Below, piece after piece: positions 2,171 through 16,207 of a stretch of DNA of 38,618 nucleotides. Each line of letters begins with the position of its first letter. Position 1 is the stretch's first letter. Source of the DNA: Deltaproteobacteria bacterium (GTDB taxonomy: Bacteria; Desulfobacterota; Syntrophia; Syntrophales; UBA2210). A program made the position numbers and the translations under genes. Where the stretch lies: the NCBI GenBank assembly GCA_030603465.1, contig JAUVXT010000001.1:1-38618 (forward strand), in the 5' to 3' direction. The notes under the pieces were generated by a model. That model was not told the DNA's origin, did no database searches, and was given only the letters and a program-made list of their open reading frames with translations.

Positions 2171-4060
2171 TTAAAGACTTGTAACTTTTCGGACAGCCCG
2201 GGCAATGCCCTCTTCATCGATGCCATGTTTTTTTCTAAGCTCCGCCTGTGTTGCATGCTCCACAAACTCGCTTCCGATCCCCAACCTCTTGACAGTTATC
2301 CCGGAGATTCCCCTTTCTTCCAGCAATTCAAGGACTGCGCTTCCGAAGCCTCCCATGAGGGCGTTCTCTTCTACTGTCACCATCTTCTTTACGGTCGATG
2401 CGATATCACAGAGAAGTTCGGTATCGAGTGGCTTTATAAAACGGCTGTTGATGACCGTTGCCTCTATCCCCTCCTTTTCCAGCTTTCCGGCTGCTTCCAG
2501 GGCAGGATAGACGGTGGAGCCAATTGCCACTATTGCGATATCTTTCCCCTCTCGAAGGACCTCCCCTTTTCCGATTTCAAGGGTTCTGGGCGCATCTTCG
2601 ATAGGAACACCCACACCCTTACCCCGGGGATACCGTATTGAGACGGGAAAGCCGCAATAAACGGCAGTTTTCAGCATATGCTGGAGCTCATTTTCATCCT
2701 TCGGGGCCATCATGATAATATTCGGAATGGCCCTCAGGAAAGAGTAATCGAAGAGTCCATGATGAGTAGGCCCATCATCACCCACAATTCCTCCGCGATC
2801 CAGGGCAAAAATAACGGGGAGCTTCTGAAGACAGACATCCTGAACGACCTGATCATAGGCCCTCTGCAGGAATGTGGAATAAATGGCAACAACGGGGATG
2901 AATCCCTCGGTAGCCAGACCGGCGGCGAAGGTGACACCGTGCTGTTCGGCTATGCCCACATCGTAAAACCTTTCGGGAAACTCCTCTGCAAACCGATCGA
3001 GGCCGGTTCCCGTGCACATCGAGGCCGTTATGGCGACTATCCTTTCATCTTCCCGGGCCAGCTTCACTGCCGCTTTGCCAAATACTTCAGTGTAAGCCTT
3101 GGGAAAATTATTCTGGGCAATCGCTTTCCCTGTTGCGATGTCGAAAGGACCGATGCCATGAAATCTTGACGGTTCCTCTTCGGCAAATTTATATCCCTTC
3201 CCCTTTTTTGTGATGACGTGAACCAGGATCGGCCTTTCGAGACCCTTGACATTTTTAAAGTTTTTTATCAGAGGATTCAGTTTGTGACCATCGAGGGGAC
3301 CGACATACTGAAAACCCAGTTCCTCGAATAATACACCGGGGACGATGAATGCCTTCAGAGACTCCTCCATCTGTCGCGTAAACTTTACAATCTGTTCCCC
3401 GACGCCGGGGATGGTCTTGAAGAAATTCAGTATCCTTGCCCTGAGTTTTGTCACCTGCTGTCCCGTCATGATCCGGTTCAGGTAAGATGACATGGCTCCC
3501 ACATTGGGCGAGATGGACATCTCATTATCGTTCAGCACAATTATAAGGTCTTTTCCCCTGTCACCGGACCAGTTAAGCCCCTCAAAGGCCATACCTGCCG
3601 TCATGGAACCGTCACCTATTACGGCGATGACCTTACATTTTTCCTTTTTCAGACATCTCGCATCGGCAATACCGGAAGCCGCCGAAATCGATGTGCTGCT
3701 GTGTCCCACGCCAAAGACATCATAGATACTCTCTTCCCGGCGCGGGAAACCACTGACTCCTCCTTTCTCTCTGAGGGTGTGAAAACTGTCTCTTCTGCCG
3801 GTTATGATCTTGTGGGTGTAGGCCTGATGCCCCACATCCCAGACAAGCTTATCATCGGGTGTATTAAACACATAGTGAAGCGCCAGCGTCAGTTCTACCG
3901 TTCCCAGTGAGGATGCGAGATGGCCTCCGTTCTTTGCCACGGTCTCTATAATTTTATTTCTGATTTCCCCTGCAAGGATATTCAATTCTTCAACCTGAAG
4001 TTTTCTCAAATCCTCAGGATTATTTATGTGTTCTAATATTGTAGTGTCTCTCTCTTCCAT
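2171..4060 (-). CDS. dxs: 1-deoxy-D-xylulose-5-phosphate synthase
   Basis: Motifs [14 protein letters not shown] and the TPP-binding [15 protein letters not shown] are present, with full-length similarity to Dxs. The track ORF begins at a TTG (4114). I prefer the ATG at 4060 ([18 protein letters not shown]...), which avoids overlap with ispA. Confidence 0.93.
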
Positions 4061-5236: not shown

Positions 5237-6601
5237 TCACTCCTGGGAAATCTTTGTGACCTTTGCCTTGAAACTACCCGATAAAACCTTCACGCCGACA
5301 TGACATCCCTCGGTCAGGGATTTTGCCTCTCTCACAATTGTATTGTCCGGCAATCTTCTGACAATACCGTATCCCCTTTCGAGGACAGAAAGGGGGCTCA
5401 AACCGTTCAGTATCGATATATTCTGTTTTAAAACATTTTTCAGATTATCCACAAGGAAAAGAGCCTTTGTTATCATATTTTCTTTCAGGGTTTCGAGTCT
5501 AAATTTATATTCTCCTATCCTGGCCGCCGGGTTCATGTATAACAGAAGCTTATTCGTGTGAAGAAGGGTGCTTTTCCGGTTCTCGAATCCACGCAGAAGG
5601 CCCTCTTTGAGGGAAAGGCTGCTATCATCCAGGTGTAAACGGAGATCCGCAATCTGTCTCCTCGGGTCCTTCAACCGCGCCCTCAGCGCCTCCGCCTTCT
5701 CTGATAACATATAGCTGATTTTACGTTGATTATTTACCAGCCTGAAATCGAGATTCTCCATCCTTTCAACCAGATCTCTTCGGTTAGGCACTACCAGCTC
5801 GGCGGCGGCCGACGGTGTCGGCGCCCTTAAGTCTGCCACAAAGTCCGCGATGGTGAAATCGATTTCATGACCCACGGCCGATATGATCGGAATCTTTGAC
5901 ACGTGTATGGCCCGTGCCACCCGCTCATCATTGAATGGAAAGAGGTCCTCCAGAGACCCTCCTCCTCTGGTCACAACAATCACATCAATTGCGGGAATGG
6001 CATTCAAGGCCGATATGGCCTCACATATTTCAGGCGGCGCCTCGACTCCCTGGACCCTTACCGGCGCTATGAGGATATCGATGGAGGAAAATCTCCTCTC
6101 CGTAATATTCAGGATATCCCTGATTGCCGCTCCCGTCGATGAGGTGACGACACCGATCCTACAGGGGAGAAAGGGAATTTCCTTTTTTAGAGAAGGATCG
6201 AAAAGTCCTTCCTCGTCGAGCTTCCGTTTGAGCTGTTCGAAGGCTATCTGAAGTGCGCCATATCCTCTCGGTTCGGCGGCGTCAATTATTAACTGATATT
6301 CTCCCCTCACCTGATAAACATTTAATTGTGCCCGGCAGACGATCTCCATGCCATCCTCCAAGTCAAAGCCTATCTTCTGCATCGCCTGCCTGAATATGAC
6401 GGCCCTGATCTGACTGTCCTGATCTTTGAGGGTAAAATAGACGTGTCCCGAACCGGGACGCCGGAGGTTTGAAATCTCGCCGGCAACCCAGAGGATATCG
6501 AAGCTGGTCTCCAAGAGTATTTTTATGTTTGCCGTCAACTCTGTAACGGTAAGGATGTCTTTCATGTCTTTTATATGAGGGCTTTCTTCAGTGTATCCCA
6601 T
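5237..6601 (-). CDS. xseA: exodeoxyribonuclease VII large subunit
   Basis: 454-aa ORF with an N-terminal OB-fold segment (WVAGEISNLRRPGSGHVYFTLKD) and a central catalytic region (VTRGGGSLEDLFPFNDE). The start could instead be the internal Met at 6565. Confidence 0.9.
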   Translation of the reverse strand: MGYTEESPHIKDMKDILTVTELTANIKILLETSFDILWVAGEISNLRRPGSGHVYFTLKDQDSQIRAVIFRQAMQKIGFDLEDGMEIVCRAQLNVYQVRGEYQLIIDAAEPRGYGALQIAFEQLKRKLDEEGLFDPSLKKEIPFLPCRIGVVTSSTGAAIRDILNITERRFSSIDILIAPVRVQGVEAPPEICEAISALNAIPAIDVIVVTRGGGSLEDLFPFNDERVARAIHVSKIPIISAVGHEIDFTIADFVADLRAPTPSAAAELVVPNRRDLVERMENLDFRLVNNQRKISYMLSEKAEALRARLKDPRRQIADLRLHLDDSSLSLKEGLLRGFENRKSTLLHTNKLLLYMNPAARIGEYKFRLETLKENMITKALFLVDNLKNVLKQNISILNGLSPLSVLERGYGIVRRLPDNTIVREAKSLTEGCHVGVKVLSGSFKAKVTKISQE

Positions 6602-6837: not shown

Positions 6838-9800
6838 TCATCGACAACTCCATATTCGATATAAACCATCTGCCCATTGAATAAGAGCCTGTTTTGCAAG
6901 TTCAGGATCACTTAATTCCCGATCCTGATGGGCAATGTATTCATTCCGGAAGGTGTAAATCCTACCTATCATTGTGGGCAGGCCTGTCTGGGACACATCG
7001 GCAAATCGTATACGGACAGACTCGAAGATACCGCCAACCTTCCGCCGCGTTGTACGCACGTAGTCCAGGCTCCAGTGTAGAAGACCGATCGGCATTAATC
7101 CATTCTGATCAATTAAAGTTCTTTCCAAGTTCTTGGCCTGCCGATGGTGGAAGTTGGCCTCGCCGGTTGGCAGATCGGTCAAATCGGGATGAAAAAATTC
7201 ATACTGTCTGGTGCCGTCCGCAGGCACATCATCCTTAAGTTCCCTGAGAATCATGCCCTTGGCCGCCTCATCCATTGGGCCAAGTAGCGGGGTAAAGACA
7301 GGCGCGAACGATATATTCTCTTTATTCTGCAAGAATTGATACAAGGCTACTGCCTGCTGTACCGCCTTCTGGTAGCGAGAAGGCAGTTCTTTAAAATTAT
7401 CCAATGGGATAAAGGCAGAAATGCTAATATCTTCCTTCGGTTCAGGTTCTCCAAAAGGCAGGCTTAATTGCGGATCACTTATCTCTTCCACCAACTGCTT
7501 CAGCGACGGCCGACACATTCGCATGAGAGTTTTCAGCTTGTTGTCACTGAGATTCTCAAAGAGTTTTTGCGGAACATAGATGTATGTCCACTTCTCCCCT
7601 TCCTGTGAAGCCGCGTCGCACCATGCCGCCGCAGCCCTTGCCTTCAAAGGCACGTCTTTATCCTCACGCCCTTTTGTTTCAACCAGGGCATATTCCCTTG
7701 CACTCATCCGGACAATAAAATCCGGCGTGTAGAAAGAAAGTCTCCCCCGCTGGGTCTGGTAATCAATTCGAAGCGCCTGGGGTCCGCCATTTTTGCAGAA
7801 TGCTCTCACATCAGGGGCAAGATCGAGGAACTGGCACATTGCCACCTCCAGATTCCGATTGCATGGAACAAGATTAAAGACGGTGCGTTTGGCCGGAATT
7901 GCCGGGTGATGTTCGGAATGTGTTACCTGATAAGGCTTCCAACTGGAGGCCGAAACGCCTTTGCCCCCGGGTTTGCGTTCTTCCTTGATTGTCGTGCGAG
8001 AAAGTATCAACGGTACAAAAGCAGCCCGGATATGTTCTCGCACATCGCTATCGGCCAGACGGCTTAGAAGGCGAGGATCGAAAAGAGTGACCTTTTCCTT
8101 GAATAGCAGCTCCGTGATGAACGTCTCAAGAAGAGGAGCTATAACCTTATGTGTTCCACGAATGCCGGTGATGTGTTCAAGTTCATCCCGGTAATACGAA
8201 ATGGCGCCGATACCGTTTTCAAGAAGAGGCAGACGGATTTTCATCTTTTCTACAACTTCATTTGTCAGGAGATGGCGGCCCTCATACTGTATCTCATCCG
8301 ATCCCCTGCTGCCGAGGGGTAGCCGAAGATATTTTGAAAATTCTTTACGGATATCTTCAATTGTAAGCCTCTCAAGCGATGGTGTTCTCGTATAGCCTGC
8401 GGATATTGCGGGAAGTGTTACATCGAGTTTTTTTATATCCTTGTTTCCCGTATCGGTAAATATGGTCACAGTACTCTTCGGAACTTTATCAATATCTACG
8501 ACCTCAATGGGGAGGCCTTCCTGACTGAGTTCCTGCTGATAGAGGCTCACAAAGGCGTTGTGCTCGACAACCGTGACAAGTTCCGCAACGCCTTCACTCG
8601 GCGAAGTCATACGTCGCAGGCCCCGGCCAAGAGTTTGTTCCGGCAAAATATTCGCCTTGGAGGTGTAAGGCCGGAGAGGAACAACAGTCGTAACATTGCG
8701 GACATCCCAGCCTTCCCGTAGCATAAGGACGGACACAATACACCGGTAGGGACTTTTCCCCGAATCGAGATCCCGGGAAAGATCGCGCAGTATCCTCAAA
8801 TCTTCTTCGCTGATTTCCTTTTCACTCTCTACAAAGGATGGATACCCTTTATTTCTGCCGCCGATCCACTTGATTTTCCCCTTAAGGTTCGTATGGAGGT
8901 TGATCGTCCTGCCGTTCAATTCGCCAAACAAGGAATCGGTGTTCAGCCTCCTCGTAATCTGATCGGCGGCCTCGGTATCTTCCGTCATAACAAAAAGCAG
9001 AGGGCTCTTGCCGCTTTTTTCCCACTCTTCCCTGGATTTCAGCCAGCGTTGATAACCCATCATCAGGTGCTGCTGGAATCGCTCTGACGCATCGCTGCTG
9101 GGACGTTCGGAAAGACCTTCCCCGCGGCCTATGATGGGAATCTTTACAATTCCGCCGTTTACAGCTTCGCCTAATGGCGCGTCACATATAACATGCTGGA
9201 ATATCTGTCCGTGATTATCTTTTGGTGTCGCCGAAAAATCGAGCTGAGAAACCAGACCCCCTCCGGTCTTTCTCTGAATTTCAGTATGCAGAAAATCAAT
9301 GGCTTCATTCCAAGCTGAGCCGGGATCCCACAGGTGGTGTGCCTCGTCATTCAAAACCATGATACGTTCATGCGCGGTGATCCGCTCACGCAGTGCCCTC
9401 CCCGTATCAAGCGCGTTTCCCCTGGACACTGCCGGTCCCACCCAGTCGTATGTTTCGGCATCCTTCTTTGCTTTTCGTTTGCTGATATCATAGAGACGGT
9501 GAATATTGGTGAGATAGAGGTTTCCCCCGGTGGATGCACCGCTGGTTTCATCCTGGAGAACAACGGACAAGTTCCAGTCGCCGCGCCACGCTACCGGAAT
9601 CAGAGGGTCTTTATCAAAAATAATTCCATTGCCGAAATCTTCTTTCAATCGTTCAAAAACGGTCAGGTTTGGGGCAATGACCACAAAATGCCTGGACATG
9701 GGCGAATCGCTTTCACGAAGGGCATGGAAATAGCTCCATACGATGGCAAGGCTCATGACCTTTGTCTTGCCCGTGCCGGTTGCCAGTTTGAAGGCGTATT

Positions 9801-10239
9801 TTGCCCAGAGATCGTCTTCCGGATTGACACCGAGAGCGGCAGTCTCACGATCGGCACCGCCGAACTCGCAGATGGTACTGGATAGGCTTCTGATCCCCCG
9901 GACTTCATAAAGGTAAATCATTGTCTCGACTGCTTCCCGCTGGCAGTAATAATATCGAAAAGGAATATTCTCGCCTGTCGGTGTCTCGATCATATGATCC
10001 CGTTCGAACCAGTGGTAAAGGAGTTCCCGTGTTGTGTCGGAAGCGCCGGCATAATCGTTTTCGCGCCATGCCTTCACAAATGACCGAAGGTTGTTGGCGA
10101 CAGTGATAGAAGAGGCCCTGCGGCCTTTTGCAATTTCCGCAGGTTTTCCCTCTTCCGATCTGATTCTATGACAATTGGGTTCTTCGTGGGGGGCATAAAG
10201 TGGTTCAAGGGCGGCGGGGTTGATAACAGTGTTTGTCAT
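6838..10239 (-). CDS. res: Type III restriction enzyme Res subunit (SF2 helicase plus PD-(D/E)xK nuclease) with an extra ~210-aa C-terminal domain
   Basis: 1133-aa ORF. It has Walker A LATGTGKTKV, DEAH box LNDEAHHLW and motif VI QTLGRGLRR. The nuclease motif YTPDFIV...ALVETKGRE is at about aa 838-858. The start ATG overlaps the mod stop (ATGA at 10236-10239). Confidence 0.85.
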   Translation of the reverse strand: MTNTVINPAALEPLYAPHEEPNCHRIRSEEGKPAEIAKGRRASSITVANNLRSFVKAWRENDYAGASDTTRELLYHWFERDHMIETPTGENIPFRYYYCQREAVETMIYLYEVRGIRSLSSTICEFGGADRETAALGVNPEDDLWAKYAFKLATGTGKTKVMSLAIVWSYFHALRESDSPMSRHFVVIAPNLTVFERLKEDFGNGIIFDKDPLIPVAWRGDWNLSVVLQDETSGASTGGNLYLTNIHRLYDISKRKAKKDAETYDWVGPAVSRGNALDTGRALRERITAHERIMVLNDEAHHLWDPGSAWNEAIDFLHTEIQRKTGGGLVSQLDFSATPKDNHGQIFQHVICDAPLGEAVNGGIVKIPIIGRGEGLSERPSSDASERFQQHLMMGYQRWLKSREEWEKSGKSPLLFVMTEDTEAADQITRRLNTDSLFGELNGRTINLHTNLKGKIKWIGGRNKGYPSFVESEKEISEEDLRILRDLSRDLDSGKSPYRCIVSVLMLREGWDVRNVTTVVPLRPYTSKANILPEQTLGRGLRRMTSPSEGVAELVTVVEHNAFVSLYQQELSQEGLPIEVVDIDKVPKSTVTIFTDTGNKDIKKLDVTLPAISAGYTRTPSLERLTIEDIRKEFSKYLRLPLGSRGSDEIQYEGRHLLTNEVVEKMKIRLPLLENGIGAISYYRDELEHITGIRGTHKVIAPLLETFITELLFKEKVTLFDPRLLSRLADSDVREHIRAAFVPLILSRTTIKEERKPGGKGVSASSWKPYQVTHSEHHPAIPAKRTVFNLVPCNRNLEVAMCQFLDLAPDVRAFCKNGGPQALRIDYQTQRGRLSFYTPDFIVRMSAREYALVETKGREDKDVPLKARAAAAWCDAASQEGEKWTYIYVPQKLFENLSDNKLKTLMRMCRPSLKQLVEEISDPQLSLPFGEPEPKEDISISAFIPLDNFKELPSRYQKAVQQAVALYQFLQNKENISFAPVFTPLLGPMDEAAKGMILRELKDDVPADGTRQYEFFHPDLTDLPTGEANFHHRQAKNLERTLIDQNGLMPIGLLHWSLDYVRTTRRKVGGIFESVRIRFADVSQTGLPTMIGRIYTFRNEYIAHQDRELSDPELAKQALIQWADGLYRIWSCR

Positions 10240-12140
10240 ATCGTCACCTCCACCGTGATGCTCGTATCGCAGCCGAAGACATCGATAACCTTGACACAGG
10301 CGGTGTAGTTCCCCTTCTTCGCATACTTGTCATATCCGAGGGTGCTGATAGTCTTCAGTGAGCGATCTTTGCGGGTCCGGTAATCCTGCCAGTGATGCTC
10401 GAAGGGTTTGTCCTCATGCCAGTCAAAATCCACCGCCCAGAAGTCTATGAAGTCAAAGCCGCTTTTAATAGCTCTTTCTTTCAGAACTTCAAGTTCTTTA
10501 CTCGGCACCTCTGCAAGACTTGGCAGAAATTTTGTCAGTTTGATATCCACAATACGCTTGCCGCTTTTATCATGATAGACCGGTTCCGCCTCTAAGACAG
10601 CCACTTCAAGAAAAGGCGGCGGGTTTTTGCGGTTCTTTTCCATAATTTCGCGAGGGATGGGAATCAGCTTGATCTTGATACCTTCCGCCGCTTCCAGTTC
10701 ATGGCAGACGAGGCGGAGATCCATTTCAAATTCCCACGCAAGGCAATGTATCTCTTTTGCCCCCGCCTCTTGGGCCGCTTTTACAACGGCACGCAATTCT
10801 TCACGGGTAAATATGCTGTCTATATTGTCGACATGGACGAAGGCCTGCCCTTTTCTCCCATGTAAAAGACCCGTCGCATTGGGTAGCGGTTCCGCCCGGT
10901 AGAACTCCATAACAACGCGCCTGTGTTCCTCATCCGCGCCCTGAAGCCGTTCCTTCTGCCACCACTGGCGCTCGTAACGGCCGAGGTTGTAGACATCGAA
11001 AGACCGGTAGGGTTTATTGTCTTTGTATAGATTTCGCTGAACATCGATGAGACGTTTCCGGCTGGTGTGTATGGCGAAACGACCGAGATCGGCCATGATC
11101 CAGCGGCGGCCAAGTTTTTCCGCCACTGCGCCGGTCGTTCCGCTGCCACAGAAGAAGTCGGCGACGAGATCGCCTTCGTTGGAGGAAGCTTTGATAATAC
11201 GTTCAATCAACGCTTCTGGTTTTTGAGTCGAATAATCGTATCGTTCAGCCGCAACGGGATTGACAGGTGGAATATCATCCCATACGGAATCCACAATATC
11301 ACCAAGGACCTCGTCAAGATAGATAACTCGTGTTCCCCCCTTCGTTGGATTCACGTCATCGCGGTATAGCCTTCCTTCCTTATCCTTCTTGAATCGCTTG
11401 ATATATTCTGATTTGTGAGGCTTGTACTGCGTGTTCCAATTGTGAGCATCAGTCTTGCGGTACGAGAGTATCGTATCGTGTTTCTGAGGAAATTTTTGGG
11501 CGGTGGATCGTTTAAAAGCGAAGTAGGCCCAGACAACCTCGTTCAAGAACATTCCTGCGAACACATCATCAAGAAGTGATCGGATAAAAAAATTGATACG
11601 CCAATCGCAATGAACATAAATACTTCCATTCTCACTCAATAACTCACGCATCAATACCAACCGCTCATACATCATGTGCAGATATGAATCCGTTCCCTTC
11701 CCCCACATGTCGCGGTACGCAACCATCTCCAGAGCGGACTGGTCTTTTCCCACAGTTTCTTTTTCATCACCGATAGGAACATTCATCGTAAAATCCGCCC
11801 CCACATCAAAGGGTGGATCGATATAGACAAGATCTATCTTCCCCTTGAAATCCTTGAGCAGGCTCGCCATTACGAGCTTGTTGTCACCCCAGATGAGCAT
11901 GTTGCGAAAATCATCAAGGCGCTTGTTTTCCCTTTCGAATAATTCAAATTGACCCGATGCAACGGCCTCACTCCGCGGCTGATCCACCGTTTCGATCTTC
12001 TGGAGAGGCATGGCGCTCCCGGCAACATCCACCGCCCGCCGGTTGCCGTACTCGTCGTACTTCCCTTCCCAGATCAACTCTGTCTTCATCTGCGAAAAAG
12101 GATGCGGATTATCCAACCCCCATCGTATATTATCAGCCAT
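10236..12140 (-). CDS. mod: Type III R-M Mod subunit (beta-class N6A/N4C DNA methyltransferase)
   Basis: 634-aa ORF. The catalytic motif DPPF (LVYIDPPFDV) precedes AdoMet motif I (DFFCGSGTTGAVAEKLGRRWIMADL), which is the beta-class order. A GGAGG lies 6 nt upstream of the ATG. The gene is coupled to res. Confidence 0.85.
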   Translation of the reverse strand: MADNIRWGLDNPHPFSQMKTELIWEGKYDEYGNRRAVDVAGSAMPLQKIETVDQPRSEAVASGQFELFERENKRLDDFRNMLIWGDNKLVMASLLKDFKGKIDLVYIDPPFDVGADFTMNVPIGDEKETVGKDQSALEMVAYRDMWGKGTDSYLHMMYERLVLMRELLSENGSIYVHCDWRINFFIRSLLDDVFAGMFLNEVVWAYFAFKRSTAQKFPQKHDTILSYRKTDAHNWNTQYKPHKSEYIKRFKKDKEGRLYRDDVNPTKGGTRVIYLDEVLGDIVDSVWDDIPPVNPVAAERYDYSTQKPEALIERIIKASSNEGDLVADFFCGSGTTGAVAEKLGRRWIMADLGRFAIHTSRKRLIDVQRNLYKDNKPYRSFDVYNLGRYERQWWQKERLQGADEEHRRVVMEFYRAEPLPNATGLLHGRKGQAFVHVDNIDSIFTREELRAVVKAAQEAGAKEIHCLAWEFEMDLRLVCHELEAAEGIKIKLIPIPREIMEKNRKNPPPFLEVAVLEAEPVYHDKSGKRIVDIKLTKFLPSLAEVPSKELEVLKERAIKSGFDFIDFWAVDFDWHEDKPFEHHWQDYRTRKDRSLKTISTLGYDKYAKKGNYTACVKVIDVFGCDTSITVEVTI

Positions 12141-12152
12141 AAAATGCCTCCG

Positions 12153-12281
12153 TTACTCCGTCCTTAGTCGATTTAATCCCCGTTTGTCCTCAAACAACAA
12201 AAACTGGCACTTCTCCGGCAGTGGCTTGCCTTCCTCCAGATACCGATCAATATTCCTTATCTCATTATCCGTCAGTTTCAT
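12153..12281 (-). CDS. 42-codon leader ORF, in frame with mod and separated from it by one TAA
   Basis: Hand translation gives MKLTDNEIRNIDRYLEEGKPLPEKCQFLLFEDKRGLNRLRTE, then TAA (12155-12153), then four sense codons, then the mod ATG at 12140. All are in one frame. It is below the size cut-off of the ORF track. Confidence 0.35.
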   Translation of the reverse strand: MKLTDNEIRNIDRYLEEGKPLPEKCQFLLFEDKRGLNRLRTE

Positions 12282-12394: not shown

Positions 12395-13231
12395 TTACAA
12401 TATAATATCAGGTGCATATTTACAAAATAGATCCGCACAAGCACACCTACCCCTTGCCAGATAACAGTTACTTTTTGGAATCGACTGTTTCAAAATTAGG
12501 TCCGCCCATTCAGATACCTTTTTCTTTTCGTCTCGATAACTTGGTTCGGCATACTCCATTTGTAATTCGATATGTTTTCGTAAAAAGAAACAGATAAAAT
12601 CAGCTAACTGGATTAATCCAACGTCCTTTGAATCAACAAAATGCGGTACGTCTACGATTTGGCTTAATTTGTCTTGTTTGGGCAATCTGTTGTAGTACGA
12701 ATCTGTCCATTCAGGGGCATCTAATAATAAATCTGTGAAATGTTTTTCTTCCCGAACTTCATTGTCAAAAATTAAAACAAATTTTCCTTTTTGATTAACT
12801 GTTCTGTCTTTTCCTCTTGGTGATCCTTGAAAATACTTTTGTAAAGACAGGGCGATATGCAATGCTAAAAACCGCCATAAAGTTGATATGTCACTGGCCA
12901 CCGATTCATCATTGAACGATTCTCTAAATTTTTCCTTGTCAACTGCACTAAATACTATGGAGTGCTTTCTTGCTCGAAGCCATTTAAAAATCGCGGCAAT
13001 GATTGCTGATCGTTGATTGCCGTTTAAGTCTCTCCATGGACTATTGCCTGAATAAAAATCTCTTGTATGTATTTCTTCTATAGTCCTACCAATGATTTCG
13101 CTTAAGGTTGACAATAAATTATTCCATGCTTCTTTGGTTGGCCGCATCCTATATGAATCAGCTATGACACCGACCATAATCCCTATTGGCTCCTCCGCCG
13201 TACCAGATTCATCTATGTAAATAAATTTCAT
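12395..13231 (-). CDS. DUF3800-like protein
   Basis: 278-aa ORF. It has the N-terminal MKFIYIDESGT (the DESG signature of DUF3800 as I remember it) and a C-terminal SKDVGLIQLADFICFFL. The gene is markedly AT-rich. Two 60-nt lines counted by hand gave 25% and 40% GC. Confidence 0.65.
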   Translation of the reverse strand: MKFIYIDESGTAEEPIGIMVGVIADSYRMRPTKEAWNNLLSTLSEIIGRTIEEIHTRDFYSGNSPWRDLNGNQRSAIIAAIFKWLRARKHSIVFSAVDKEKFRESFNDESVASDISTLWRFLALHIALSLQKYFQGSPRGKDRTVNQKGKFVLIFDNEVREEKHFTDLLLDAPEWTDSYYNRLPKQDKLSQIVDVPHFVDSKDVGLIQLADFICFFLRKHIELQMEYAEPSYRDEKKKVSEWADLILKQSIPKSNCYLARGRCACADLFCKYAPDIIL

Positions 13232-13403: not shown

Positions 13404-14285
13404 TCATGTGGATATAACTAAAACTTTAACTGATAGTTTGCCATCTGATGTGGTTCGTTCCCCTTCGATATCTGTCTTTAGACCTTCTGGATTCGCAATT
13501 ATATTTTTTGGGTCATAAATAACGCACCATAAATTCTCGCAATTAGGATGACGACGATAATGTTCAATGTCGATGATTAACTCATCTCCGATTTTTTTGC
13601 CGTGTGTCCGATCGCGTGCATATTTGAGTTCAAGTACTAAAGAGTATTTTGGAAGTAAAAAATCCATTCGCGTACTTGAACCTGCATAGCTTGGAGTAAA
13701 CTCTTCGGGCCTTATATCCGCAACCCAAGGCCTAAGTAATGCGTGCAACAGATCTTGTACGTCCCATTCAGAATCAAATGACAGAGGTTGAGCACCCTTA
13801 CGTCTATGTGATAGAGGATGCATAGCTCGCGGAAGGCCACGAAGAAGCACTTGAAGCAACTCCTCTATTGTTGATGGTCGCCTAATTTCCTGTGTTACTG
13901 ATTTAGCAAGTGCGGGCGATATTTCGTCAGGCGAGATTCCTGTTGGCAGAACTCGGCCACCGCGATAATATCGAAATCCATTTTCCTCTAAAGCTTTAAT
14001 AACACGTTCTCGATTTTCCTCCCAGTTAGTACGTTCTTCCGTACCCTCTTGAGGTGGCAAATCCATAAATTCTTCGATAACATTTCCAAGAACGGAGAGG
14101 CTATCTACATTTGGATCATTGCCCGCACGGAACAACCACTCTTTCCATTTAGAACCGTGCGAAAGATCTGGTGGCAGACCGGGTGCTCCTGCAGATTCAA
14201 ATAGCGCGTTTAGGGTCGCATGAGAACCTTGCAAAATATTGCCGACAATAGCGCAAACCACCTTTGGAATTCGTACATTAGCCAT
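13404..14285 (-). CDS. hypothetical protein with a C-terminal PD-(D/E)xK-like nuclease motif
   Basis: 293-aa ORF. The C-terminal half reads EWDVQDLLHALLRPW...IRPEEFTPSYAGSSTRMDFLLPKYSLVLELKYAR...LIIDIEHY...CVIYDP, with D208, E219 and K221 in a D-x(n)-E-x-K arrangement. The N-terminal ~130 aa are unassigned. There is no obvious Shine-Dalgarno sequence. Confidence 0.55.
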   Translation of the reverse strand: MANVRIPKVVCAIVGNILQGSHATLNALFESAGAPGLPPDLSHGSKWKEWLFRAGNDPNVDSLSVLGNVIEEFMDLPPQEGTEERTNWEENRERVIKALEENGFRYYRGGRVLPTGISPDEISPALAKSVTQEIRRPSTIEELLQVLLRGLPRAMHPLSHRRKGAQPLSFDSEWDVQDLLHALLRPWVADIRPEEFTPSYAGSSTRMDFLLPKYSLVLELKYARDRTHGKKIGDELIIDIEHYRRHPNCENLWCVIYDPKNIIANPEGLKTDIEGERTTSDGKLSVKVLVIST

Positions 14286-14333: not shown

Positions 14334-14376
14334 GAGAAATAAATCCAGTAATATTTGATATTAATGGCTCGTTTCT
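14334..14376. repeat. 43-bp perfect direct repeat, copy 1 (contains the palindrome TAATAT-TTG-ATATTA)
   Basis: GAGAAATAAATCCAGTAATATTTGATATTAATGGCTCGTTTCT is identical to 14484-14526. Confidence 0.95.
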
Positions 14377-14483: not shown

Positions 14484-14526
14484 GAGAAATAAATCCAGTA
14501 ATATTTGATATTAATGGCTCGTTTCT
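14484..14526. repeat. 43-bp perfect direct repeat, copy 2
   Basis: Identical to 14334-14376. The copies are offset by 150 bp with a 107-nt spacer. Confidence 0.95.
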
Positions 14527-14551: not shown

Positions 14552-14650
14552 CTAATTTATCGAGGATGTCTCCAATCTTGCTTCAGACTCCGTCCTCATC
14601 TGCGAAAATGGATGTGGGTTATCCAGCCCCCAGCGTATCTTGTTATTCAT
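14552..14650 (-). pseudogene. remnant of the 5' end of a second mod gene
   Basis: The ORF reads MNNKIRWGLDNPHPFSQMRTE-SEARLETSSIN-stop. Its first 63 nt match the current mod 5' end (12078-12140) at 51/63 positions. Most differences after codon 4 are synonymous. It has its own GGAG upstream. Confidence 0.6.
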
Positions 14651-14689
14651 AAAGTTTCTCCACTTATGAGGAAATATATCCCTTTAGCT

Positions 14690-15463
14690 TCATATCATGG
14701 AATCTCCCAAATATATCTTTATCCTTTCCCTGTTAGCTCCAAGGCTTGAAAACTGTTTTTCACAGACATCGCTGAAACGTGCGAGCACCTTTCGATTGAT
14801 CTGTTCCTGATCCTCAAAGACGGCAAGAGAACGGAAAGTCGATCCCCACTTTTCAAACTGGAGCAAAGTAATGGTCGCGTCTCTTGTTTTATCATCCGTC
14901 GGCAACGCCTGGACAAAAATCGGTTTGGGCATCCCGTTTATACGGCAATCGATCAAGTACTTGCCTCCCGGATCGTGCAGGGGGTCGTGCCAGTCAAATT
15001 CACGGCGATTTTCCGGCACCGTTTCTTCCATAAACACCCTGAAATCTTCCATAAAAGTCGAACGAACCCGCTCACGTGAAAGGTACGTAACATCGGTTAT
15101 TCTAAGAAGCGCTTGAATAAAGCTATAAAGAGCATCGCCATACCGTTCTTCCTGAATCGGTATAATTAATTCGCCTTCACGGTCGTGGACGCTGAATACC
15201 GACAGCGCATTTGTAATGATTTTTTGTCTGGTTCCTCGTTGAAGGTCTTTCTCGTCCAGATCATATGTCAGGTGCATGTATGTGTGCCCTTCATCTGAAA
15301 GAATCCATTCCCCATTTTCTCTTTTCAAGGTAATCGCCAGATGATCGCCATCCTCAAACATAAAGGGAGTAAAAACTCGAAAACGATTTACACCTTCTGT
15401 CGATATTGTAACTTTGTCGCACACCTTTTCGCGAAAGTTACCTTCAATAATTGCTTTGTCCAT
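14690..15463 (-). CDS. DUF1828/DUF1829-like protein
   Basis: 257-aa ORF. The N-terminal pattern [35 protein letters not shown]...[14 protein letters not shown]...[13 protein letters not shown] matches my memory of DUF1828. The C-terminal half ([21 protein letters not shown]...) resembles DUF1829. The ATG lies 9 nt after a GAGGAGG formed by the end of the upstream gene. Confidence 0.55.
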
Positions 15464-15466
15464 GGT

Positions 15467-15949
15467 TTATACCTCCTCAAATAGGGTCGTCTGAGGATTA
15501 AAAGGAGTCTCAAATCCACACTCGCTAATCATACATGAAACAGCCTTGTTAAAGTCGGAAAACCTGTCCGTTGGTTCAGCGTATGTATCCTCCCTCGCGC
15601 CAAGTTCTTGATACCGTTCTGTGGCCAGATGAATGTGAAAATCGTAAAACATATTTCCCTCAATGGGATTTGTATGTTCGTGACTTTTTCCATTATATCG
15701 CCGTAAACGGAAGAATTGGTTTGAATTTGCCAGCCTGTAACCAAGAATAATCGAGAAATCGAGGGGATTGAAAAGGCTCTGCCGCAGGATTAAGCGAAAG
15801 TCGCTGTCGTCAGAACCTTTAACATCCAACTCACGTTCCTTGTGCCCTCTTTTGGGGTGCACCTGTATCTTTTTTCGATAATCAGCAGGAAGAACTTTCC
15901 GTTCTCTCAATAACAGAGCAACATCCTGGTCCGACAACATAGCGCTCAT
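15467..15949 (-). CDS. hypothetical 160-aa protein (His-rich motifs RRYNGKSHEHTNP and FHIHLATERYQ)
   Basis: The ORF has a good RBS (GGTGAGG, 6 nt upstream). Its stop is 3 nt from the next start, so it forms an operon with 14690-15463. I recognise no family. Confidence 0.55.
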   Translation of the reverse strand: MSAMLSDQDVALLLRERKVLPADYRKKIQVHPKRGHKERELDVKGSDDSDFRLILRQSLFNPLDFSIILGYRLANSNQFFRLRRYNGKSHEHTNPIEGNMFYDFHIHLATERYQELGAREDTYAEPTDRFSDFNKAVSCMISECGFETPFNPQTTLFEEV

Positions 15950-16033
15950 TTATTGCCTCACCCTTTCTTATTTCTTTGAAATCGACAAAATATTTAGCCC
16001 TTTGCCACTTTTCCTTTCATCCTTCACGACTAC

Positions 16034-16042
16034 ATTATACCA
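16034..16042 (-). promoter_or_regulatory. extended -10 promoter element TGGTATAAT
   Basis: The minus strand reads ...CAGTGGTATAATGTAG... about 85 nt upstream of the 160-aa gene start. The -35 is weak (TAGCTT at 17-nt spacing). Confidence 0.3.
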
Positions 16043-16136
16043 CTGAGCTGATGATTAAGCTATCGAAGGTTTCCTTGAATTCGACCGCATCGGATTCGCC
16101 TTCATCAATTATTTTTTCTATCTCAGATCGGTTCAT
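16035..16136 (-). pseudogene. 33-codon fragment resembling the N-terminus of AlbA_2 (Schlafen-like, divergent AAA) proteins
   Basis: The ORF reads MNRSEIEKIIDEGESDAVEFKETFDS, then LIISSVV and a stop. The GES..EFK segment is the typical start of AlbA_2-domain proteins. The rest of such a protein is missing. Confidence 0.4.
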
Positions 16137-16170: not shown

Positions 16171-16207
16171 AAATAAAAAACCCCGCCTCACTCGATGAGA
16201 AACGGGG
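16171..16207 (-). terminator. rho-independent terminator (minus strand)
   Basis: The minus strand reads CCCCG-TTT-CTCA-TCGAG-TGAG-G-CGGGG followed by TTTTTTATTT. This is a two-part stem followed by a U-run. Confidence 0.55.

Follow-up and report, generated by a model that had tools for sequence, protein, structure and literature searches.

A coupled DUF6978-DUF1828 gene pair upstream of a Type III mod-res locus as a probable divergent branch of the candidate defence cassette PDC-M24

Background

PDC-M24 is a two-gene cassette, FAM_00129>>FAM_00065, that was seen 153 times and was predicted to be a defence candidate via 'guilt-by-embedding' in BREX, DISARM and Type I loci (Payne et al., bioRxiv 10.1101/2024.01.29.577857). 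Its second family, FAM_00065, is also paired with another upstream family, FAM_01408 (bioRxiv 10.1101/2024.01.29.577857). Here a pair of adjacent genes, A and B, is described from a stretch of 38,618 nucleotides (nt) of contig JAUVXT010000001.1 from a Deltaproteobacteria bacterium. The whole stretch is referred to as the window, and the pair lies in it upstream of the mod and res genes of a Type III restriction-modification (R-M) locus. Profile comparisons suggest that the pair is a divergent branch of PDC-M24, a cassette class that PADLOC already catalogues as a candidate.

A canonical PDC-M24 pair is carried by the IncP plasmid pRSB223. It encodes proteins of 147 and 253 amino acids (aa) from genes with a 4-nt overlap, which score 4.9e-52 (A) and 2.7e-107 (B) against the PADLOC profiles, and relatives of its B protein carry DUF1828 and DUF1829 domains. 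This pair is found ~440 nt downstream of two open reading frames (ORFs) that match PADLOC BovA (2.2e-22 and 2.2e-150) and look like a split BovA gene (L081, 2002-4034).

Other described systems share single traits with such a pair. One is the PrrC anticodon nuclease, a single ABC-ATPase/nuclease protein that cleaves tRNA(Lys); its gene lies within the EcoprrI Type Ic hsd locus and provides it with a second line of defence. Another, DS-6/HipAD, is a validated defence system that consists of a HipA-like toxin kinase and a non-catalytic partner containing DUF1829 (PMC13092281). The literature on DUF1828 and DUF6978 themselves yielded only passing mentions in unrelated papers.

A translationally coupled and co-diverging gene pair

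Gene A (15467-15949, minus strand) encodes a 160-aa protein that is assigned to the DUF6978 family by the family matches given below, and gene B (14690-15463, minus strand) encodes a 257-aa protein with an N-terminal DUF1828 domain; both ORFs are present as listed in the preliminary description of the window, which was made from the sequence alone. The junction reads TTT GAG GAG GTA TAA ACC ATG on the minus strand, such that the stop codon of A (TAA, 15467-15469) and the start codon of B are separated by 3 nt. The Shine-Dalgarno (SD) sequence for gene B, GAGGAGG (15472-15478, minus strand), is contained within the last codons of A. The SD sequence and the 3-nt gap had been recognized from the outset, and the spacer from the SD sequence to the ATG is 8 nt rather than the 9 nt first given.

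Homologues were collected by a scan of one genome per species across 185,579 species, which returned 226 copies, and the best 80 were used for the locus analyses. In 78 of these 80 loci A is directly followed by B in the same orientation, and the remaining two are interrupted by contig ends. The gap between the genes ranges from -11 to +13 nt in all 75 homologous pairs compared, and a strong SD sequence is found in or just after the last codons of A in 57 of them; therefore, the coupling is not a matter of chance, and the earlier proposal of an obligate, translationally coupled pair is borne out. Even in pairs in which the stop codon of A has shifted, GGAG is retained at the nucleotide level. 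Such coupling would lead to roughly equimolar synthesis of the two proteins, and they probably form a complex. A and B share a reading frame in the window, and a fusion by programmed read-through was considered; it was rejected, given that the frame relation is not conserved across homologues.

A and B co-diverge. Their pairwise distances correlate with r = 0.77, a value that none of 999 Mantel permutations reaches. Across the same loci, B retains 63-95% identity and A retains 55-90%, with A diverging 1.27 times faster (dA/dB). The pair is also mobile. The best 80 loci come from Desulfobacterota, Nitrospirota, Acidobacteriota, Planctomycetota, Chloroflexota and Actinomycetota, and further from Bacteroidales, Chlorobium, Spirochaetia, Latescibacterota, Gemmatimonadales and others, more than ten phyla in all.

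Family assignment of proteins A and B

The link to PDC-M24 is clearest for B, which has 4272 homologues (thousands of clusters at 90% identity). DUF1828 (PF08861; threshold 22 bits) is matched with 93.5 bits and E = 1e-26 over residues 32-122, covering the full profile (1-91). Both PDC-M24B profiles are matched as well, PDLC04539 at 5.2e-22 (residues 16-147) and PDLC04540 at 4.1e-17 (residues 28-206), and phrog_5059 spans residues 13-232. By profile-profile comparison, two B families are joined over residues 23-148 with 98% probability, and seven residues (D40, D57, T61, Q117, D124, D140 and D218) are invariant across two B subfamilies that are ~20% identical.

Both DUF1828 and DUF1829 had been proposed for B from the sequence, and the first assignment holds while the second does not in Pfam or hhalign. 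DUF1829 (PF08862) gives no Pfam match to B at E <= 10, and hhalign finds no similarity between the C-terminal halves of B and of DUF1829-bearing relatives (E = 0.2). A link of the C-terminal domain to DUF1829 is supported only indirectly, via phrog_5059, which covers residues 13-232 of B and 4-248 of a DUF1829-bearing homologue, and via PDLC04540, which extends to residue 206. A PD-(D/E)xK or TOPRIM domain was also considered for this part of B and rejected, given that D218 is the only residue there that is invariant across the two subfamilies and that hhalign shows no similarity.

An AlphaFold2 (AF2) model of B was built from 57 sequences of the two subfamilies. Residues 1-125 are predicted with a pLDDT of 70-90, except for a low-confidence loop at 67-76, and the predicted topology of this N-domain is alpha-beta4-alpha2-beta2-alpha; the C-terminal domain of ~110 aa has a pLDDT below 50. 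Foldseek returned nothing significant for the B model in the PDB, the best hits being the InvB chaperone and a KA1 domain (E > 0.2), and the resemblance of the N-domain to KilA-N is insignificant. The N-domain model does match phage DUF1828 proteins in BFVD, with E = 1e-6, probability 1.0 and TM up to 0.78. These phage proteins include four stand-alone proteins of ~130-140 aa (A0A6G5XW07, A0A6G5XWC1, A0A6G5YFV2 and M4Q3E7), and a full-length DUF1828 protein is encoded by Halorubrum virus Humcor1.

The preliminary description had placed A in no recognized family, which is now superseded by its relation to DUF6978 and a marginal match to PDC-M24A. The window copy itself does not match Pfam DUF6978 (PF22398; gathering threshold 29.6 bits) even at E <= 10. 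Relatives with ~70% identity to it reach DUF6978 at 32.1 and 32.9 bits, and 49 of 74 diverse members match the family, the best at 4.4e-40. Since these relatives pass the Pfam cut-off though the window copy falls below it, the homology of A to DUF6978 is clear by transitivity. A also matches phrog_27326 at 2e-27. Its match to the PDC-M24A profile PDLC04538 is marginal (E = 3.5e-4, 18.9 bits, residues 4-116), and that to phrog_17771, which canonical PDC-M24A matches too, is weak (8.8e-4). An hhalign comparison of the A family with a single canonical PDC-M24A sequence was not significant. In all, 2744 homologues of A were found (90% clustering), mostly of 160 aa; at 50% identity the family forms 1127 clusters, the listed members have about 155-165 aa, and no fused domain occurs among the 150 representatives listed.

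Two His-rich motifs, which were noticed early, proved to be the most conserved part of the A family: RRYNGKSHEHTNP at residues 83-95 and FHIHLATERYQ at residues 104-114. Among 74 diverse sequences, K18, R84, N94, H105, H107 and Y113 are invariant, G87 is nearly so, and R56, S66, N86, H90, H92, E97, T110, R112 and Q114 are each kept in at least 65, with H92 in 73. The invariant His, Arg, Asn and Tyr residues form a pattern that looks like an active site. Several known motifs were compared with it and rejected because spacing and family-wide conservation do not fit, namely cupin motif 1, HNH/beta-beta-alpha-Me, GIY-YIG and HIT, and also 2H phosphoesterase, HEPN Rx4-6H and a barnase-like HY. A His2-Cys2 zinc site was ruled out, given that C139 and C144 are replaced in ~25% of the 74 diverse members.

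Structure prediction, which had been suggested as a check, succeeded in part. The N-domain of B could be modelled, and A and the C-terminal domain of B gave poor models with no PDB relative. For A, the AF2 model from 28 close homologues has a pLDDT of 50.8; with poor confidence, a helix at the N-terminus, a meander of five strands and a strand-helix-strand-helix tail can be discerned, and Foldseek found no fold relative of this poor model in the PDB. Single-sequence and profile/hidden Markov model (HMM) searches gave no significant PDB sequence relative of A or B. No known toxin or antitoxin family was matched by either protein in Pfam, NCBIfam or PADLOC, and no helix-turn-helix (HTH)-type DNA-binding domain was detected in them with Pfam.

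Taken as a whole, the profile matches indicate that the window pair belongs to a divergent branch of candidate PDC-M24. A and B very probably constitute an autonomous mobile cassette of this class.

Genomic neighbours of the pair

Flanking genes in the 80 loci were counted by Pfam and PADLOC scans. The gene at position -1 encodes a Type I S subunit in 8 loci, a SNF2/ResIII helicase with NOV_C in 6-8, DUF6079 in 5, YhcG in 2 and Cas1 in 1. At +1 an N6_N4 methylase (5 loci), ResIII (5), an HmaB/DUF1156 methylase (4), HsdR (3), GmrSD (2) or SIR2 (1) is found, and at +2 ResIII (5), a YgjP-like protein (4), HsdR (3), an N6_N4 methylase (3) or AAA_21 (2).

A homologue of the mod gene of the window is nearby in only 5 of the 80 loci. 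An N6_N4-type methylase lies within 10 kb in 13 of 78, of which 11 are downstream on the same strand within ~5 kb, one is upstream (L013) and one is on the opposite strand (L067). Given these two counts, the pair is best regarded as an independent cassette that favours methylation-based defence loci, and not as a Type III subunit. The suggestion that it is a dedicated accessory of Type III R-M finds no support in the same counts or in the other contexts, which include Type I, Hma, SIR2, ABC-ATPase and housekeeping genes. The survey of neighbourhoods thus upheld the conservation of the pair and did not uphold a specificity for Type III R-M, the contexts being a mixture of defence and housekeeping genes.

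Three annotated contigs illustrate the range. On one, A-B is followed by UPF0758_N and a large N6_N4/NmeDI_C methylase and stands beside PIN and AbiEii genes. On another, A-B precedes an HsdM-like methylase, PRTase-CE, NADAR, and AAA_21 with DUF4276. The third holds a copy of A-B in an integrase and AEP-TOTE island, adjoining an AAA_15 gene. This third copy (L088, 153-7326) is the closest relative of the window pair, with 90% identity in A and 95% in B. Its neighbours comprise genes for a tyrosine integrase and an AEP-TOTE primase along with several of unknown function, and an AAA_15 ATPase gene follows, so that it lies on an integrative element.

A ghost mod gene and a cassette slot

On the minus strand of the window, the order of genes is A, B, a ghost mod, a 293-aa gene, a DUF3800 gene, a 42-codon ORF, mod, res and xseA. 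The live Type III mod (10236-12140, minus strand) encodes 634 aa and matches Pfam N6_N4_Mtase and PADLOC MTase_III (3.4e-237, full length). The res gene (6838-10239, minus strand), whose product of 1133 aa matches Pfam ResIII and PADLOC REase_III (4.5e-28), overlaps the mod stop by 4 nt.

The ghost is the 5' end of a former mod (14587-14661, minus strand), with 80% identity over 75 nt to 12077-12151. It retains a GGAG (14658-14661), a 7-nt spacer, an ATG (14648-14650) located 39 nt after the stop of B, and 21 Mod-like codons, after which unrelated sequence and a stop follow; the ghost peptide is MNNKIRWGLDNPHPFSQMRTE, as compared with MADNIRWGLDNPHPFSQMKTE in Mod. This agrees with the early report of a ghost start with its own ribosome-binding site (RBS) some 40 nt downstream of B. 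In a metagenome-assembled genome (MAG) of Bacteroidales (L004), the pair and the following mod fragment align with the window as one block at 79% nucleotide identity. In another locus (L003), mod-res is 82-90% identical to that of the window, and the order is a DUF3800 fragment, A, B, an 85-aa ORF, a SIR2/Dsr1-like gene, a 1044-aa gene, mod and res.

That a Type III mod once lay immediately downstream of the pair in this lineage, as had been proposed, is supported by the ghost start, the L004 junction, the L003 synteny and the operon at L095 described below. The A-B-mod-res arrangement is real in this lineage, but it is one context among many. In L004, A-B is flanked on both sides by mod 5' fragments of ~37-40 codons (5371-5480 and 6899-7016), and in L011 a mod fragment lies upstream of A (3975-4052).

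Between the ghost and the live mod, two genes appear as a second, inserted cassette. The first (13404-14285, minus strand) encodes the 293-aa protein, with a DpnII/MboI-type restriction-endonuclease-like domain (Pfam PF18742 1.3e-43; PADLOC Aga_Helical-REase 2.8e-26), and the second (12395-13231, minus strand) encodes the 278-aa DUF3800 protein (Pfam DUF3800 1.6e-13). The fragment of this DUF3800 gene upstream of A-B in L003 indicates that cassettes shuffle around the same mod-res locus.

The 42-codon ORF (12153-12281, minus strand) ends directly at the RBS of the live mod and is an N-terminal remnant of a different Type III-like Mod (tblastn 60.6% over 33 aa, E = 2e-4). It matches an Aminobacter plasmid coding sequence annotated as 'site-specific DNA-methyltransferase', starting two codons in, and a DEAD/DEAH helicase gene follows that coding sequence. 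Since this stump abuts the RBS of the live mod, the 5' end of mod has been replaced more than once. The 5' end of a former mod survives as a stump at the end of each cassette, so that the region just upstream of mod can be described as a slot into which two or more cassettes have been inserted. The arrangement suggests that cassettes move by recombination within mod 5' regions. A fixed recombination core, GACRGAGT, was proposed for the mod junctions and rejected, given that the break points differ (codon 21 being the last one retained in the window, and about codons 36-40 in L004 and L011). The locus also illustrates how a defence island grows: a stretch 5' of a Type III mod has gathered at least two cassettes, each with a mod 5' stump still attached, and these stumps speak for recombination in the 5' part of mod as one route by which cassettes are exchanged.

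The GC content is 0.41-0.43 over 12-16 kb of the window, as compared with 0.475-0.514 across mod-res (7-12 kb), which speaks for a foreign origin of the cassette region. A terminator scan of the window found no terminator between B and the downstream genes. Between the ghost mod and the 293-aa gene there is a perfect 43-nt direct repeat (14334-14376 and 14484-14526, 150 nt from start to start), and each copy holds a near-palindrome, CCAGTAATAT-TTG-ATATTAATGG, that looks like an operator. No further copy of the repeat occurs in the window, and none in the 93 loci compared.

The leader of the cassette

About 100 nt 5' of A are common to the closest loci. In an alignment with L001, L002 and L088, the homology begins just before a TATAAT, such that the cassette leader spans 15950-16049 on the minus strand, with the TATAAT at 16034-16039. 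The TATAAT is preceded by TGG and is followed by an untranslated leader of ~80 nt. The conserved leader and TATAAT may well be the promoter of the cassette itself; a simple sigma-70 scan did not call a promoter at 16034-16039. No RNA element was recognized in the leader or the intergenic regions, as judged by Rfam matches and stable folds.

Just 5' of the leader lies a 33-codon ORF, MNRSEIEKIIDEGESDAVEFKETFDSL... (16035-16136, minus strand), which overlaps the putative -10 element. We take it to be like the N-terminus of AlbA_2/Schlafen-type proteins, for which the blastx match is weak (E = 0.07). A GC-rich hairpin with a T-run (16175-16207, minus strand), ~40 nt upstream of this ORF, resembles an intrinsic terminator.

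Variants without A and broken copies

In two independent in-frame deletions, A is removed save for its first 8 or 20 codons, which are joined to B (P0233 at L095, 1215-2000, and P0229 at L098, 259-1101). B remains translated from the start of A in these delta-A variants, and the P0233 variant is present on contigs from three samples. At L095 the extant operon consists of (delta-A)B, an N6_N4 methylase, an AAA_21 ATPase and ResIII. Given that the delta-A variants keep B in frame, B is tolerated without A. An asymmetry of pseudogenes was considered as a means to discriminate between models and was rejected, since A-broken and B-broken copies both occur.

Proposed function and alternative explanations

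The explanation that we favour by a modest measure is that A-B is a self-contained, mobile two-gene cassette for toxin-antitoxin (TA)-like defence, with A as the effector and B as its partner; that such a separate two-gene module might be involved had been raised as an alternative in the preliminary description, and it fits the data. The cassette takes its place within or next to methylation-based immune loci, and in the window it stands at the head of a Type III mod-res. The pair would act alone, as a TA-like defence of the abortive-infection type. Protein A may be the catalytic effector, possibly a hydrolase or phosphotransferase centred on His, Arg, Asn and Tyr, which might be metal-dependent and might act on a nucleic acid or nucleotide. 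B would bind A through its DUF1828 domain and keep A silent until infection leads B to release or activate it. An anti-phage role is slightly more likely than not, as judged from the genomic contexts and the PADLOC listing, and the choice of A as the effector is tentative.

Several observations weigh against this explanation. The argument for defence is drawn from context throughout, and about half of the genes adjoining the pair belong to processes other than defence (for example Hsp70/GrpE/HrcA, gyrB and metabolic enzymes). Foldseek against the PDB and HMM searches identified no effector fold in A or B, with poor models of A and of the B C-terminal domain. Each of the three comparisons reported above ties A no more than weakly to canonical PDC-M24A (PADLOC 3.5e-4, phrog_17771 8.8e-4, hhalign not significant). 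In classical TA pairs the toxin is usually the better conserved partner, and here the evolutionary rate of A is 1.27 times that of B. The isoelectric points of 6.1 (A) and 5.2 (B) place both proteins on the mildly acidic side, such that the usual contrast of a basic toxin and an acidic antitoxin is missing. Frameshifted copies of A (L038) and of B (L012) both occur in MAGs, one or two of each, and are possibly assembly errors.

The faster divergence of A is also the point of departure for a serious, if improbable, rival, in which the same cassette has its roles reversed. B would be the effector, with its C-terminal domain or the D40/D57/D124/D140/D218 cluster as the catalytic part, and A would be a fast-evolving sensor or regulator that switches B on. 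The rival is to be taken seriously since B is the larger and better conserved protein, with those five Asp residues invariant across its two subfamilies. In its favour, PADLOC uses at least four A profiles (PDLC04533, 04536, 04537 and 04538) and only two for B, and FAM_00065 pairs with FAM_01408 too. The delta-A variants, which keep B in frame at the head of a mod-ATPase-res operon, bear on both sides of the question, since the loss of A should be lethal if A restrained a toxic B, and yet these variants persist in several samples. Moreover, searches of Pfam, NCBIfam and the PDB, the last by both sequence and fold, gave B no match to a nuclease or any other effector family, and the invariant His, Arg, Asn and Tyr of A are more like an active site than a sensor surface.

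A less probable rival is that the pair is not independent at all, and is rather an accessory or regulator of methylation-based restriction, either by controlling mod/res expression or by guarding against phage anti-restriction proteins. The pair does recur directly 5' of DNA methyltransferase genes on the same strand (at the ghost mod and in L003, L025, L082, L093 and L095), 11 of 78 loci have a co-oriented N6_N4-type methylase within ~5 kb downstream of it, and some 7-8 loci have the pair lodged between hsdS and hsdR. The absence of a detected terminator after B would suit such a role, as would the example of PrrC in the EcoprrI hsd locus. The partner systems are, however, mutually unrelated (Type I, Type III, Hma, SIR2 and ABC-ATPase), many loci have no R-M gene within two genes on either side, and a homologue of the window mod is rarely nearby. 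A conserved leader and -10 element also belong to the cassette itself, one copy lies in an integrase/primase island that has no R-M system, and no HTH-type DNA-binding domain was detected in either protein.

A more speculative reading, which we consider slightly less probable still, is that the cassette is a portable 'guard' of methylation-based immunity that rides in Type I, Type III, Hma and similar loci. It would sense either infection or the interference of phages with restriction through anti-restriction proteins and unleash A, which would be a small histidine-dependent hydrolase with a fold that has no PDB relative, and the phage DUF1828 proteins of ~135 aa would be decoys that jam the B sensor. 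The remaining idea, that the pair is a selfish addiction module that stabilizes mobile DNA without anti-phage benefit, is very improbable: a tight two-gene operon, wide horizontal spread, occurrence on an integrative island and an IncP plasmid, and the existence of B-only derivatives would all be expected of such a module, but the pair is rare on plasmids (one distant match in 72,556 records) and in viral contigs (3 of 2.9 million), and its placement is biased to defence loci rather than generic mobile-element backbones.

Whichever way the question of function falls, the family is large, unusually well conserved, present in many phyla and without a solved structure. If the defence role is true, the pair is a new two-gene immune system and possibly brings a new small catalytic fold; if it is not, a widespread false candidate can leave the defence catalogues.

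Comparison with known systems

Type II TA operons resemble the pair in being small, coupled two-gene operons that move horizontally and survive the loss of one partner, as the delta-A variants do. They differ in that an antitoxin of the length of B (257 aa) would be a large one, that B has no recognizable DNA-binding domain, and that A and B are both acidic. PrrC offers a parallel as an extra gene inside an R-M operon, to be compared with A-B between hsdS and hsdR or before mod; unlike A-B, it is a single protein, and neither its sequence nor its domains are related to those of A or B. DS-6/HipAD is likewise a two-gene, TA-like system, and its non-kinase partner carries DUF1829, a domain found in the relatives of canonical PDC-M24B. 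A HipA-like kinase serves as its effector, and DUF3037 takes the place of DUF1828 in the partner, whereas the window pair includes no kinase and window B gives no DUF1829 score.

PDC-M24 is the closest of the known systems. In both the window pair and PDC-M24, a small protein of ~150-160 aa is followed by a DUF1828 protein of ~255 aa, the genes are adjacent on the same strand in the order A then B, and they overlap or nearly touch (the gap here being 3 nt, with the order kept in 78 of 80 loci). Both sit in or beside systems of the R-M type. Window A and canonical A both have hits to PDLC04538, marginal in window A, and weak hits to phrog_17771, while phrog_5059 is common to window B and canonical B over nearly their full length, and window B matches both PDC-M24B profiles. 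Among the differences, window B is only ~20% identical to canonical PDC-M24B, its C-terminal domain is not recognized as DUF1829 by Pfam or hhalign, and window A reaches only E = 3.5e-4 on one PDC-M24A profile. The canonical relatives recovered come mostly from Betaproteobacteria-type sources, whereas the window branch occurs among uncultivated Desulfobacterota, Nitrospirota, Acidobacteriota, Planctomycetota, Chloroflexota and others.

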